This document shows, in pieces, positions 48,403 to 53,409 of a stretch of DNA of 64,000 bases. Within the stretch, counting starts at the first letter, position 1, and every line of letters begins with the position of its first letter. Origin of the DNA: Candidatus Heimdallarchaeota archaeon (GTDB taxonomy: Archaea > Asgardarchaeota > Heimdallarchaeia > Hodarchaeales > Hodarchaeaceae); the NCBI GenBank assembly GCA_020353515.1, contig CP070695.1, positions 4,689,414 to 4,753,413 of the forward strand, in the 5' to 3' direction. A program made the translations under genes and the position numbers. The notes beneath the pieces were generated by a model. The model ran no database searches, was not told where the DNA came from, and saw only the letters and a program-made list of their open reading frames with translations.

Positions 48403-49476
48403 TCAAGATAAAATTGAATTAAGAGACAAATTTTTAGATTCTTTTGATTTAACGACGTTATTTAGAGATGTTTTAAAAGATAAAGCAGCCCAATAGTTAA
48501 AAATCAGTCTAAGATTTCCTGAAGTTCGTAATAGGAGCTCCAAATCATAAACTGAAGGTTGAGTTTTTTTATCCCTTAATTTCTCTAGTAGTTTTCCAAT
48601 TGTAGGCAAATCTTTCTCCATTTTATTTTTTAGCCGTTTCGGTTGATTATCGGGGAGGAGTAAAGCATCAAGGTTCTCCAATCCTCCTGATTTATTATCG
48701 ATTTCTTGAAGGATTTTGATAACTATATCTTTTTCAAATCCTTCACTAATTCTATGATGTGTTCCCCGCCATTTTGTCAAATTTCCCACTCCACGTTCAC
48801 CGCCTTTCGGTAAAAGCACCATATTTGACCCTGTGATACGCCAACGAGCAGAATCACTTCCATCGACTTTTTCTGCAAGTTTGTTGATAAGACTAGGTGC
48901 TCCTACTCCCAAAGCCCAAATTTTAACTTTTTCTAAAGCATCATACTGTCTTAGGATTGTCTTCAATTCATCGAGGACTGGAAATAATCGATTTGCGTGT
49001 CCTCCTCCTTTCCTCATCAAAGGAACAAGACGGCCAATGAAAAACCATTCAGGAAAACCCTCATTCAAGATAATTTCTCTCAATATTTCAACTCTGTCAT
49101 AAGGAACAACAGGTTGCACTTCTAAGGAGTATAGTTCTCTATAGTTTACTAAAATCTTGTCATCAGGAAAATCCAAAGTTATTTTTAGAATAGATGGATC
49201 CTGTTTAGTTATTTCTTGATATATCCTCTTCAATTCGTCTATGTCTAGATCTATCTTTTTTTTTCTATTTAATGCCGAGAAAGCACCAGAATCAAGTAAG
49301 ATTTTACCATCCCATCCAAGAGTATCATGAATCCCCTTTTTTACTACCTTTTGAAACAATCTAGGAGAACTAAAGAAGTCTATTGCGGATATCATCAATG
49401 CATCTGGTTTCAATGCCCAATCGTAAGTCCAAGGGCGAAATATCGCATTGATAGGAGTGCCAATAGCAAAGATCAT
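48403..49476 (-). CDS. TGT/DpdA-like transglycosylase paralog 1
   Basis: LLDSGAFS, ITLDFP, PVV, IGRLVP, WALGVG, GSDSARW; no Zn-binding cysteines, no PUA domain. Confidence 0.78.
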   Translation of the reverse strand: MIFAIGTPINAIFRPWTYDWALKPDALMISAIDFFSSPRLFQKVVKKGIHDTLGWDGKILLDSGAFSALNRKKKIDLDIDELKRIYQEITKQDPSILKITLDFPDDKILVNYRELYSLEVQPVVPYDRVEILREIILNEGFPEWFFIGRLVPLMRKGGGHANRLFPVLDELKTILRQYDALEKVKIWALGVGAPSLINKLAEKVDGSDSARWRITGSNMVLLPKGGERGVGNLTKWRGTHHRISEGFEKDIVIKILQEIDNKSGGLENLDALLLPDNQPKRLKNKMEKDLPTIGKLLEKLRDKKTQPSVYDLELLLRTSGNLRLIFNYWAALSFKTSLNNVVKSKESKNLSLNSILS

Positions 49477-49485
49477 TATTGTACC

Positions 49486-50010
49486 TCAAAATAGGAAATC
49501 TTCAAGGGATTTGGTTCTTGACAAATTCTCCAAGAATCGCACTAATTTTTGTTGTCCAACCCCAAGTCCACCCATATTTTCCACTATAATTTTTGTATCT
49601 ATATGAGTTTTTAAACCTTCAATAGCCTTTAAGTAGGTTTTTCCCATTAATATATAGATGTAGTCAAATTCCTCCTCTTTATTCCATCTGATTACCTCTT
49701 GGATTACCTGTGAATTATGTTTTCTAGCAAGATTTTCAGTCATTTTCAGATCATAATCTTTAATTAAATCAGTACTCCTAAGGAAGCCATATTTCGCAGA
49801 TACTATCCCTAAAAATAGGTGGGAACTCCATCTCCCCTCACGCTTAGCTTTCCTAATTACCTGAAACATTGGGCCTTTATAGGCCTCTGATGCACGTATT
49901 TCACGATTCTGTAACTCCAAGGCTTTTTTCTTACCACATGATATGATAAGTAAGACTTTTGGCTTTTTCAACAGAAGTACTCTCAAAAATAAAATATCTC
50001 TAAAGGTCAA
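49486..50010 (-). CDS. DUF6884-like protein
   Basis: LLIISCGKKK, A.EAYKGPMF, IVSAKYGFL, YDLKM, MGKTY, GLGVGQQ; real start possibly TTG 49971. Confidence 0.75.
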   Translation of the reverse strand: MTFRDILFLRVLLLKKPKVLLIISCGKKKALELQNREIRASEAYKGPMFQVIRKAKREGRWSSHLFLGIVSAKYGFLRSTDLIKDYDLKMTENLARKHNSQVIQEVIRWNKEEEFDYIYILMGKTYLKAIEGLKTHIDTKIIVENMGGLGVGQQKLVRFLENLSRTKSLEDFLF

Positions 50011-51036: not shown

Positions 51037-51972
51037 TTGCGCTTATATTTAGGCGTTGTTCCAGGAATTTTTCCATGGTTGAAGGAGGACATTATTCACA
51101 AAAATATGACACGTATTTATGCAGGAGTTATTTTTTCATACTGGTCATTTCGAAAAAAAATCCAAAATATAATCTCGAAAGGACTTCATGATTATTTTTC
51201 TTTTGATGGACCTATTATGGTAGATTCTGGGGCTTATAGTGCCTTTAATTCTGGTGTAAATATTGACATTGACGATTATTTGTCTTTTATATCGAAAATT
51301 GATATGAAAGACGATGATACTATTGTTAATCTTGATGTGATTCAAAATCCAAGAAAGTCAAAACAGAATTGGAGATACTTAACGAATAAGTTGGATATCA
51401 ACGTTTTGCCAGTGATTCATCTACCTGAAGCAGGAAATTCATATTTCTCTGAAGATTATATAGGACTGGGTGGGATGGTGCCAGCATTCAAAATAAATCA
51501 AACTGGGAGTGTGAAAAATGTAGCTGCTTGGTTGGTTTCATTAGATCAGACCGTAAACAAAAAGTATCATGGATTTGGTGTTGGAAGTCCATATCATCAA
51601 ATTGCATTTCTTGACTTCCTTTATTCGGTAGATTGGATTGGTTGGCGAAGGAATGCAGCAGTCTGTTCATGTTACACCCCTGAAGGATCAATTTATATTC
51701 ATGAGGCTCGTAAAAAGAAAAAGAAGGGAAGAAGAATTACAGAGGAGATATTTAATCTTTATGCTCCCCCATTCATCGATTCATACGAGATGTTATATCG
51801 AGAGGGCACAGAGGGGTGGGTAAATCGTGCATTGTGGAATGTATGGTGGTTTCTACTTGCAAAAGACTATAAAGGTCAAATTGAAGTCTCTAGCTATGTT
51901 CTTTCTTTGAAAAAAACAATTCGTCAAACAGAACTGGAATATAGGACAATGGATCTTGGTCAATTCTTATGA
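51037..51972 (+). CDS. TGT/DpdA-like transglycosylase paralog 2
   Basis: MVDSGAYS, VNLDVI, LPVIH, IGLGGMVP, YHGFGVG, YSVDWIGW; no Zn site. Confidence 0.8.
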   Translation: MRLYLGVVPGIFPWLKEDIIHKNMTRIYAGVIFSYWSFRKKIQNIISKGLHDYFSFDGPIMVDSGAYSAFNSGVNIDIDDYLSFISKIDMKDDDTIVNLDVIQNPRKSKQNWRYLTNKLDINVLPVIHLPEAGNSYFSEDYIGLGGMVPAFKINQTGSVKNVAAWLVSLDQTVNKKYHGFGVGSPYHQIAFLDFLYSVDWIGWRRNAAVCSCYTPEGSIYIHEARKKKKKGRRITEEIFNLYAPPFIDSYEMLYREGTEGWVNRALWNVWWFLLAKDYKGQIEVSSYVLSLKKTIRQTELEYRTMDLGQFL

Positions 51973-52068
51973 GAGATTAAAATGAATGACAACCTTGAAA
52001 TATATTCCCAAGTATCAAGTAGTATATTTCACTTGAAACCGTCAATTAGTCTTTATCATACATCGTTA

Positions 52069-53409
52069 TTAGAAAGGACGACAATCTTCCTTGATTCTTG
52101 ATATAGCTTCTTCAACCCTTTGAATGGCTAGTTCTTGTCTTTCTTTTGATAGTGCTGGTTTCTTTCTTAAGCAGGTTCCCTCACTTTTTTTCACGTGATC
52201 TAGATAGCCAATCATCGTTTCTTCAATATATTCATAGATCAATGCATCTGCTTGACGTTCAAACTCTTTATCCTTTGTAAAAAAGATTAAATGCTCAGAA
52301 AATATATTTCCAATGTCTTTACTAGTAGATTTACTTGTTAGATCAATGTTTCGTGAAAGCGATAATTGATGGGTTAATCCTACGAGTTCCCCTAGTTTTT
52401 TAAAGTGGAGATGAGATTTTATCCTCTCATATTCTAAACAACTATCACCAATTACTATACAAATAACGCTTCCGAGTTTAACTATCCTTACCATCTCAGA
52501 TATTGTATGGAACATATCAAAAAAGTATTCAGTTAAGAGTCTCCATCTATTACTAATATGATGACCATGAGCTCCAATTTCAACTTTAGCGAAACGACGA
52601 TAATCATATCCAAGAACACTCATATTATATTGATGAATACGATTATAATCTAGTGCATTAACATAGGGGGGGGATGTAACAATACAATCAATAGTTGCAC
52701 TAGGAATAAACGATAAATCTCGCGCATCTCCTAATTTGATATCATCTTGCATCCCATTATTAAAATCTGCAATCGTAAGATTGAATTCTTTCATAATTTT
52801 TATCATAGACTTAATTTTGGCTCGAAATGTATTCCAAATGCTCATTTTCTTCCAATTTCTGGATTCTGTTAAGGTAGAAATCGTAGATGATAAACCCACC
52901 TTAAAAAAGTCCTGAAATTCGTCATATATGATTTCATTCTCAATATAATCAAGAATTAGTGAAATTAATCTAGTATTGTCTTCAGTGAATCGCTTGGACA
53001 AATTTCTTTTAGGAAAAATGAATTTTCTTGAAGTGTATTGTTCCTTGTTAAATAGAAATGACTTTATTTCAGATTGAAATTGAGCATGAAATTCTTTCCA
53101 AAGTTTCGTGAGTATTTCACAATCTAGTGGTTTTGTTTTTACTCGTGATAACAAAATGGCTAGAGGATTCTGATCGACGCCACCTGAATGATTTTGAGAT
53201 AATACTCCTTCGACTACTGATGTACCACATCCTACAAAAGGATCAAAGATTCTAGATCCACCTGAATTGAGAAACATGTTATAAATTGTATAAGGTATTT
53301 GTGGGATAAAGCGTGCGGGGTAAGAGTGATATTTATGAGTAAGTGTCTGTGTGGAAGCTCCTGGAAAATCCCAATCGACTCCAATGATTTTTTCCTTTGG
53401 AAAATCCAT
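52069..53409 (-). CDS. N4-cytosine DNA methyltransferase, alpha class
   Basis: THKYHSYPARFIP, DPFVGCGT, VTSPPY, VIGDS. Confidence 0.9.
   Translation of the reverse strand: MDFPKEKIIGVDWDFPGASTQTLTHKYHSYPARFIPQIPYTIYNMFLNSGGSRIFDPFVGCGTSVVEGVLSQNHSGGVDQNPLAILLSRVKTKPLDCEILTKLWKEFHAQFQSEIKSFLFNKEQYTSRKFIFPKRNLSKRFTEDNTRLISLILDYIENEIIYDEFQDFFKVGLSSTISTLTESRNWKKMSIWNTFRAKIKSMIKIMKEFNLTIADFNNGMQDDIKLGDARDLSFIPSATIDCIVTSPPYVNALDYNRIHQYNMSVLGYDYRRFAKVEIGAHGHHISNRWRLLTEYFFDMFHTISEMVRIVKLGSVICIVIGDSCLEYERIKSHLHFKKLGELVGLTHQLSLSRNIDLTSKSTSKDIGNIFSEHLIFFTKDKEFERQADALIYEYIEETMIGYLDHVKKSEGTCLRKKPALSKERQELAIQRVEEAISRIKEDCRPF

Follow-up and report, generated by a model that had tools for sequence, protein, structure and literature searches.

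7-Deazaguanines occur in the DNA of phages and archaeal viruses and in bacterial Dpd islands, where they have a role in the conflict between viruses and their hosts and are patchily distributed. Here we describe a locus in an Asgard genome, that of Candidatus Heimdallarchaeota archaeon (GCA_020353515.1, contig CP070695.1), lying within a window of 64,000 nt (4,689,414-4,753,413), which is the whole stretch of DNA analysed and the reference for the gene positions of the locus. It contains two genes, TGT1 and TGT2, the products of which are predicted to have the fold of tRNA-guanine transglycosylases (TGTs), close to genes for a DUF6884 protein and for DNA methyltransferases. We give an even chance to the proposal that these genes make up a DpdA-type module, fixed in the chromosome and devoted to modification alone, that exchanges bases in DNA; both the nature of the base and DNA as its target are what we infer.

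The closest described counterparts are the viral DpdAs (CAjan/9g, STSV1/2, PHROG 887), which, like TGT1 and TGT2, are Zn-less barrels, of around 270-310 aa, and which share with them the motifs DSGA[FY]SA, xLD, GG[MI]V and S[VC]Dxx[WY]. Unlike the viral genes, those of the archaeon are chromosomal, vertically inherited across an order and present as two non-sister paralogs together; they are accompanied by a DUF6884 gene, which was not found beside the three viral dpdA genes examined, have no adjoining queC/D/E or folE, and in the case of TGT1 lack the base-reading His. The bacterial Dpd system of Salmonella Montevideo (7ui4, PMC10164549) combines a TGT-fold DNA transglycosylase with a second protein acting on the inserted base, as is predicted here, and its DpdA has the same Asp/Asp/His/Asp active-site set as TGT2; however, the archaeal locus has no match to the PADLOC DpdA models, no Zn site, no Ins8 insertion, no DpdB ATPase and no DpdD-K, and its DUF6884 protein, with 174 aa, corresponds in length to around half of the 319 positions of the DpdC model. 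The archaeosine TGT (aTGT; 1iq8/1j2b), which is the best structural match to both proteins and has the same three catalytic Asp residues, differs in having a Zn site and C-terminal PUA-containing domains and in acting on G15 of tRNA. A further member of the superfamily, Cap10 of type IV CBASS, has as partners the QueC-like Cap9 and a CD-NTase, neither of which was detected among the genes that we scanned (37312-63546).

Fold, active site and ancestry of TGT1 and TGT2

TGT1 and TGT2 are homologous to one another, as judged both by direct comparison (BLASTP 4e-11 over 94 aa) and by alignment of their family profiles (hhalign probability 97%, E 4e-11, around 190 columns). AlphaFold2 models built from the family alignments (pLDDT 89 and 89.5) confirmed that both are predicted to fold as TGT TIM barrels with the archaeosine TGT as best structural match, the TGT1 model superposing on 1j2b (VIA Z 20.1, root-mean-square deviation 3.0, 261 aligned residues) and that of TGT2 on 1iq8 (VIA Z 23.9, root-mean-square deviation 4.5, 284 aligned residues), whilst TGT2 also matches the DNA preQ0 insertase DpdA (7ui4, VIA Z 20.1). 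The fold of TGT1 is known through structure prediction, since searches of the PDB with its sequence or profile gave no usable TGT match. The alignment with E. coli Tgt equates D89, D143 and D264 of that enzyme, the last of which is the nucleophile, with D62, D102 and D208 of TGT1 and with D63, D100 and D199 of TGT2. All six Asp residues are invariant in the 26 and 28 family members, respectively, down to 45-50% identity. In addition, TGT2 has a His at the position of DpdA His181, so that its full set is D63, Y67, D100, H128 and D199; TGT1 has an invariant Pro125 in place of this His. The counterpart trio of DpdA itself is Asp95/Asp130/Asp256 (PMC10164549).

In the alignment that shows it for E. 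coli Tgt and for the genome's own aTGT, the CxCxxC..H Zn motif is found in neither protein, and the HN of Tgt is replaced by LIFN in TGT1 and by ALWN in TGT2. Neither has a PUA domain detectable with Pfam, the barrel filling the whole of their 357 and 311 aa. A preliminary description of this DNA, made from the sequence alone, had proposed two divergent TGT-fold genes on opposite strands that retain the first Asp, the substrate-binding Asp and the second catalytic Asp, and lack both the Zn site and the PUA domain of archaeosine TGT; the models and alignments bear out each of these points. Both proteins score below the family cut-offs of the tRNA-guanine transglycosylases (PF01702, TIGR00432 and TIGR00430): TGT1 has no match in Pfam, TGT2 reaches 16.1 bits with PF01702, for which the cut-off is 26.3, and with TIGR00432, which has a cut-off of 350 bits, they score 18.5 and 30.8 bits respectively. 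Nor did Pfam give a match to DpdA4/DUF6610 (PF20314).

Several lines of evidence support the placement of TGT1 and TGT2 with the viral DpdA-type DNA transglycosylases rather than with the tRNA TGTs. Residues 28-281 of TGT2, which span its whole barrel, match PHROG 887, labelled as a phage 'queuine tRNA-ribosyltransferase', at 2.7e-24; TGT1 scores only 1.3e-3, over a short stretch. Among phage proteins, TGT2 is best matched by DpdAs, namely those of STSV1/2 from Sulfolobus (29% identity, 9e-13) and of CAjan/Seurat-type phages, and TGT1 by the DpdAs of Rhizobium phages; the DpdA genes of these viruses adjoin queC, queD, queE, folE or an ArcS-like DUF5591 gene. When hidden Markov models (HMMs) of the TGT1 and TGT2 families, A1 and A2, were compared, the DpdA of STSV1 scored 49.5 and 65.3 bits and that of CAjan 18.4 and 55.6 bits, against 16.1 and 25.9 bits for the genome's own aTGT and 8.8 and 15.2 bits for E. 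coli Tgt. In a tree of 68 sequences, made by the quick method of IQ-TREE and rooted on two tRNA TGTs, TGT1, TGT2 and all three viral DpdAs form a clade apart from the tRNA TGTs (SH-aLRT 96%). Within it, TGT2 groups with the DpdAs of CAjan and RHEph04 (98%) and TGT1 with its nearest outgroup, the 281 aa metagenomic protein P0155 (97%). The two are not sisters; hence they are separate lineages and not the product of a recent duplication. The placement of TGT1 follows from the tree and from the A1 score of the STSV1 DpdA, and among predicted viral structures the top matches to its model are likewise DpdAs of phages and archaeal viruses. The profile and phylogenetic comparison that had been suggested as a check thus sets both paralogs with the DpdA type.

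Absence of the Zn motif extends, in this alignment, to the DpdAs of CAjan, RHEph04 and STSV1, so the Zn-less state is normal in this clade and does not make the archaeal proteins atypical, as had been supposed. By contrast, the bacterial DpdA family keeps the Zn site, CXCX2CX22H, together with the Ins8 insertion (PMC10164549). Membership of that bacterial family was considered and rejected, as the PADLOC DpdA models matched neither protein at E values up to 1 and the Cys motif is missing. A third DpdA-type lineage close to TGT2 (P0162, P0175 and P0184, with A2 scores of 130-150 bits) is present in other metagenome-assembled genomes (MAGs) of the Hodarchaeales and was not found in the source genome.

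Organisation and conservation of the locus

The genes of the locus and the evidence for their assignment are as follows.

42861-45299, minus strand: 812-aa tandem DNA methyltransferase, type III Mod-like by prediction (Pfam N6_N4_Mtase 7e-42; PADLOC MTase_III 1.7e-55)
45319-46599, minus strand: MFS transporter (Pfam MFS_1 8e-40)
46727-48328, minus strand: 533-aa protein, family-less (no match in Pfam, NCBIfam, PADLOC or PHROGs)
48403-49476, minus strand: TGT1, 357 aa, Zn-less DpdA-type TGT fold (model, alignment, tree)
49486-50010, minus strand: DUF6884 protein, 174 aa, YaaA/DpdC-like (Pfam PF21818 1.1e-13)
50007-50909, minus strand: DUF362 protein (Pfam 3.3e-35)
50910-51036, no strand: divergent intergenic spacer of 127 bp between the DUF362 operon and TGT2, presumed to hold the promoters (gene map)
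51037-51972, plus strand: TGT2, 311 aa, Zn-less viral-type DpdA (phrog_887 2.7e-24; model; tree)
52069-53409, minus strand: 446-aa N6_N4-family DNA methyltransferase with a TSPPY motif (Pfam; PADLOC MTase_II 1e-41)

The DUF362 stop codon overlaps the first possible start of the DUF6884 gene by 4 nt, and the TGT1 ATG lies 9 nt past the DUF6884 stop with GAGGT between them; hence DUF362, DUF6884 and TGT1 constitute a single operon of which DUF362 is the first gene, and translation of DUF6884 and of TGT1 is predicted to be coupled. The 446-aa methyltransferase gene converges on TGT2 across a gap of 96 nt. Both the operon and the convergent arrangement are therefore as had been described; the methyltransferase, put forward there as an N4C enzyme, is assigned here to the N6_N4 family. 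On one side, the locus is flanked by genes for YjbQ, TFIIB, HflX and a subtilase, and on the other by those for an SDR protein, GcvP1/P2, NAD kinase and CysRS. Scanning of the genes from 37312 to 63546 with Pfam showed no integrase or nuclease, nor did PADLOC and Pfam scans of the same genes detect a DpdB ATPase or DpdD-K restriction genes. The 533-aa protein, encoded between TGT1 and the MFS gene, has hydrophobic segments at both its N and C termini.

The TGT1 family proper is small, comprising around eight clusters at 50% identity among 1.84 billion representatives, and all its named members come from Asgard MAGs. When 300 genomes sampled from the phylum were searched, strong TGT1 matches were confined to the GTDB genus of the window (19 of 20 genomes) and to a sister family of the same order (both genomes). 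TGT1 is thereby present in 21 of the 22 other sampled genomes of this order, which is Hodarchaeales-like by its NCBI labels. Of the 23 further genomes of the order, 18 have TGT2, as do all of the high-quality ones (five, with the window's own counted); the remaining five, in which it was not found, are each less than 95% complete. Synteny across 17 loci defines a core with TGT2 on one side and DUF6884, TGT1 and the 812-aa methyltransferase gene on the other, although in two genomes (G102 and G280) TGT1 and TGT2 are around 12 kb apart. The DUF362 gene is found at L054, L056 and L059, and is absent from L010, L012, L052, L053, L055, L057 and L058, at all seven of which the 812-aa methyltransferase gene directly follows TGT1. 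Among the 17 loci, the 446-aa methyltransferase is restricted to L054, L056 and L059, the MFS gene to L054 and L059, and the 533-aa gene to the source genome. Hence the genes for DUF362, the MFS transporter and the 446-aa methyltransferase are additions within a close subclade, whereas the 812-aa methyltransferase is deeply conserved. Of the gene association expected across Asgard genomes, the part formed by TGT1, TGT2 and DUF6884 is therefore conserved over the order, and the part concerning DUF362 and the 446-aa methyltransferase extends only to that subclade. As the region singled out in the preliminary description (48403-53409) does not reach the 812-aa gene (42861-45299), it misses the most conserved methyltransferase, and it takes in two genes that were added within the subclade.

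This 812-aa protein is an internal tandem (duplication detected at 5e-8) with a PKD-like C terminus. Its N-terminal copy is degenerate, having STNLGM in place of FCGSGT, and the second is of the beta class with DPPF followed by FCGSGT; the best PDB matches are type III Mod proteins (6k0w and EcoP15I Mod). On this evidence it is predicted to be a type III Mod-like N6_N4 methyltransferase of the beta class with one active copy. No Res subunit to go with it was found within the window. A PKD domain is uncommon for a DNA methyltransferase. Every genome examined has DNA methyltransferase genes next to the module.

Partner protein, precursor supply and possible function

The DUF6884 protein scores 51.9 bits with PF21818 (cut-off 30) and carries both CxxxK (C25-G-K-K-K29) and VSAKYG, which fits [LV]SAxxG. 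The Pfam curators describe the family as YaaA-like, DNA-binding and probably base-flipping, with CxxxK and LSAxxG motifs (PMC11701544). The protein also matches a PADLOC model of a defence candidate, PDC-M57A (3.5e-11), and weakly matches the two PADLOC DpdC models (5e-4 and 1.2e-3), with residues 29-96 falling on positions 44-107 of 312-319. The statement that DpdB, DpdC, queCDE and folE are all lacking from the window accordingly stands for DpdB, scans for which were empty, and is weakened for DpdC by these partial matches. DpdC converts preQ0-DNA to ADG-DNA without need of DpdA or DpdB (PMC10164549). The DUF6884 gene adjoins TGT1, with a gap of a few nucleotides, at every locus where the gene pair is whole. 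Moreover, four metagenomic proteins of 405-485 aa (P0150-P0153) have a C-terminal DUF6884, the only part seen by Pfam, behind a domain with the DpdA-like motifs DSG (DSGVF), ID (IID), GGLL (IGGLLKK) and GxDYKGW. The best PDB match to this N-terminal domain is DpdA (7ui4, E 0.003); its alignment to the TGT2 family was not significant with hhalign, and HMM scores were about zero. These fusions are suggestive of a link between DUF6884 and DpdA. For DUF362, which belongs to a Pfam clan common to LarA_N (PMC11770544), neither a solved relative nor functional literature beyond this clan membership was found. The genome has a second DUF6884 gene (L009), beside genes for YdjM and an SDR protein and with no TGT gene nearby.

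The source genome is a single contig of 4.94 Mb, 96% complete, and encodes one canonical aTGT of 654 aa, an ArcS of 644 aa and a transporter of the YhhQ/Vut_1 type (5e-34), these three being placed at positions 243097, 642082 and 3762145 of the contig, as well as PTPS genes found by Pfam. The sequencing runs listed are of DNA from sediment metagenomes, with none of RNA. QueC was not found, the QueC model matching only ThiI and PP-loop proteins in the genome, and a model of the E. coli-type QueE, which was positive in four control archaea, found nothing. A tblastn search with phage QueC, QueD, QueE, FolE and the 'preQ0 transporter' of CAjan recovered ArcS alone and, as it missed the PTPS genes, was too insensitive. 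Hence de novo synthesis of preQ0 appears, on these searches, to be missing from the genome, and because neither QueC nor QueE was found, any 7-deazaguanine would have to be salvaged or imported. The earlier suggestion that the host archaeosine pathway provides the precursor is therefore unlikely to hold for de novo supply, given also the presence of a YhhQ-type importer. Archaeosine in tRNA would then depend on salvaged preQ0. That the MFS transporter imports the base is speculation. One stretch containing a PTPS/QueD-like gene (L015, positions 4904000-4919000 of the contig) has the gene adjoining that of a Ras-family small GTPase of 176 aa, with a 1655-aa open reading frame in the same stretch; such GTPases are typical of Asgard genomes.

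In the proposed module, TGT2 would turn a guanine out of the DNA duplex, become linked covalently to the deoxyribose through Asp199, and then install a 7-deazaguanine base. This would most likely be salvaged preQ0 or a relative, imported via the YhhQ-type transporter, as QueC and QueE were not found. TGT1 is predicted to carry out the same chemistry with another base or in another sequence context, because it has Pro in place of the base-reading His and keeps the three Asp residues. The DUF6884 protein is predicted to be a DNA-binding, base-flipping partner that either alters the base once it is in the DNA, in the way that DpdC makes ADG-DNA from preQ0-DNA, or assists in its insertion, whilst the tandem Mod-like methyltransferase would add an independent methyl mark. 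With no nuclease, the modification would serve the cell's own DNA as protection or as a label instead of driving restriction. The proposal builds on the observed fold, catalytic residues, family placement, operon and conservation, and on the failure to detect QueC and QueE, and from these we infer the roles of TGT1 and the DUF6884 protein. It is further supported by the presence of the 654-aa aTGT and ArcS, which already cover tRNA archaeosine. A number of points weigh against it, however. The tree was made by a quick method, has long branches and includes rows picked for their likeness to TGT1; the match that ties DUF6884 to DpdC is weak and covers part of the model (E 5e-4, around 60 residues); the evidence from the fusions consists of motifs, with HMM scores near zero; and the failure to find QueC and QueE makes the donor base uncertain. 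Synteny inherited within a single order may account for the proximity of the 812-aa methyltransferase gene to TGT1, and in the source genome the MFS and 533-aa genes intervene between the two. Finally, the occurrence of TGT1 in 21 of 22 genomes, between genes for TFIIB, YjbQ, GcvP and CysRS, looks closer to the pattern of core RNA modification than to that of defence.

This last point leads to an alternative in which TGT1 and TGT2 modify RNA, either tRNA at a position other than G15 or rRNA, as a lineage-specific housekeeping function, with DUF6884 acting on the RNA-borne base. We regard this as unlikely, albeit a serious alternative. The genes are near-universal and vertically inherited in the order, their surroundings are of a housekeeping kind without nuclease or mobile-element genes, the host keeps a route for preQ0 salvage and ArcS, and some related archaeal TGT-likes adjoin DUF5591/ArcS-like genes. 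However, TGT1 and TGT2 group with the DpdAs rather than the tRNA TGTs and have no Zn subdomain, PUA domain or other RNA-binding C-terminal domain, their partners are DNA-related (the YaaA/DpdC-like DUF6884 and the DNA methyltransferases), and a canonical aTGT is already in the genome. It is distinctly improbable that there is no single system at all and that the clustering reflects inherited synteny, with TGT1, TGT2 and the methyltransferases acting independently, some of them perhaps as decaying relics of an old defence island. As the insertions indicate (the 12-kb separation, the MFS gene and the 533-aa gene), the genes can be moved apart, TGT2 did not turn up in five of the 23 further genomes, each less than 95% complete, and relatives represented by P0068 lack these neighbours; but the close coupling of DUF6884 and TGT1 is kept at every locus with the whole pair, the paralogs co-occur in most genomes, and the invariance of the active-site residues down to 45-50% identity argues for purifying selection.

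A role in counter-defence, in which the transglycosylases would strip 7-deazaguanines from viral DNA, restoring guanine or leaving abasic sites recognised by DUF6884, is slightly less probable still. The failure to find QueC and QueE in the host would fit such an eraser, as would YfjM, a DUF6884 member reported to interact with abasic lesions and with those of RNA bases (PMC11701544), and the existence of glycosylase defences against phage DNA modified with 7-deazaguanines (bioRxiv 10.1101/2025.10.29.685425). A TGT-fold eraser is nevertheless without precedent, and the complete pair of nucleophile and acid/base residues indicates exchange over simple excision. Among the Foldseek matches to TGT2 is also Cap10 (9ntn, E 9e-7), a remodelled TGT-family enzyme of type IV CBASS (bioRxiv 10.1101/2025.04.06.647259), which raises the idea that a nucleobase is conjugated to protein and that no nucleic acid is modified. 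This is very improbable indeed: the match is weaker than those of TGT2 to aTGT and DpdA, Pfam scans of the genes from 37312 to 63546 detected neither a QueC-like Cap9 nor a CD-NTase, and the matches to the QueC model in the genome are ThiI and PP-loop proteins.

Were the proposed base-exchange module to act across the order, its chromosomes would contain a non-canonical purine, either a 7-deazaguanine derivative made from a salvaged precursor or another base, installed by two non-redundant transglycosylases and finished on DNA by DUF6884. We put this fuller version forward tentatively, as possible though rather doubtful. It would amount to a DNA mark that is inherited and independent of restriction, carried by the prokaryotes that are, as far as is known, most closely related to eukaryotes, and would give a function to DUF6884. 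Here, the core chromosome of a whole Asgard order has a fixed DpdA-type enzyme in two deeply diverged copies, with a DpdC-like partner and no nuclease; should the DNA be modified, the order would be the first among cellular lineages to have a vertical, restriction-free and salvage-dependent mark of the 7-deazaguanine type. No description of the module was found in the literature on DUF6884, DpdC/YaaA, 7-deazaguanine in Hodarchaeales or DpdA in Asgard archaea.

Related transglycosylases in other archaea

Other families of the Heimdall class encode TGT-likes of 375-410 aa that score above the Pfam TGT threshold, some of them within defence islands. At L046, such a gene is found with those for an N6_N4 methyltransferase, a PD-(D/E)XK nuclease and UvrD. 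At L047 (4575-12537 of its contig), two tandem TGT-likes of 392 and 389 aa accompany an N6_N4 methyltransferase, a PLD/NgoFVII-like nuclease and AIPR, and the whole resembles a defence island of the Dpd kind in which the transglycosylase is present as a pair. A candidate for a compact defence system is L069 (883-7640 of a JGI metagenome contig), at which the gene for P0155 is accompanied by another TGT gene and by genes for two BrxC/ORC-like ATPases, a PLD-domain protein and an unassigned protein of 289 aa. These island-borne genes resemble those of the window in being sometimes paired and in adjoining N6_N4 methyltransferases (L046, L047 and L069), but differ in the company of PLD or PD-(D/E)XK nucleases, UvrD, AIPR and BrxC-like ATPases, the module in the window being without either nuclease or ATPase.

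Some related archaeal TGT-likes adjoin DUF5591, and another relative adjoins an integrase. On an archaeal metagenomic contig (L067, 6042-11652), genes for Vut_1 (YhhQ), a TGT-like that is a wider relative of TGT1, DUF5591 (ArcS-like), NurA and a HerA-like DUF87 protein lie in a row, which suggests a salvage-fed module for an archaeosine-type modification of DNA tied to DNA-end processing genes. Through these neighbourhoods, the wider clade is repeatedly tied to the handling of 7-deazaguanines, to DNA and to conflict systems, and the module in the window looks like a domesticated, nuclease-free version of it.

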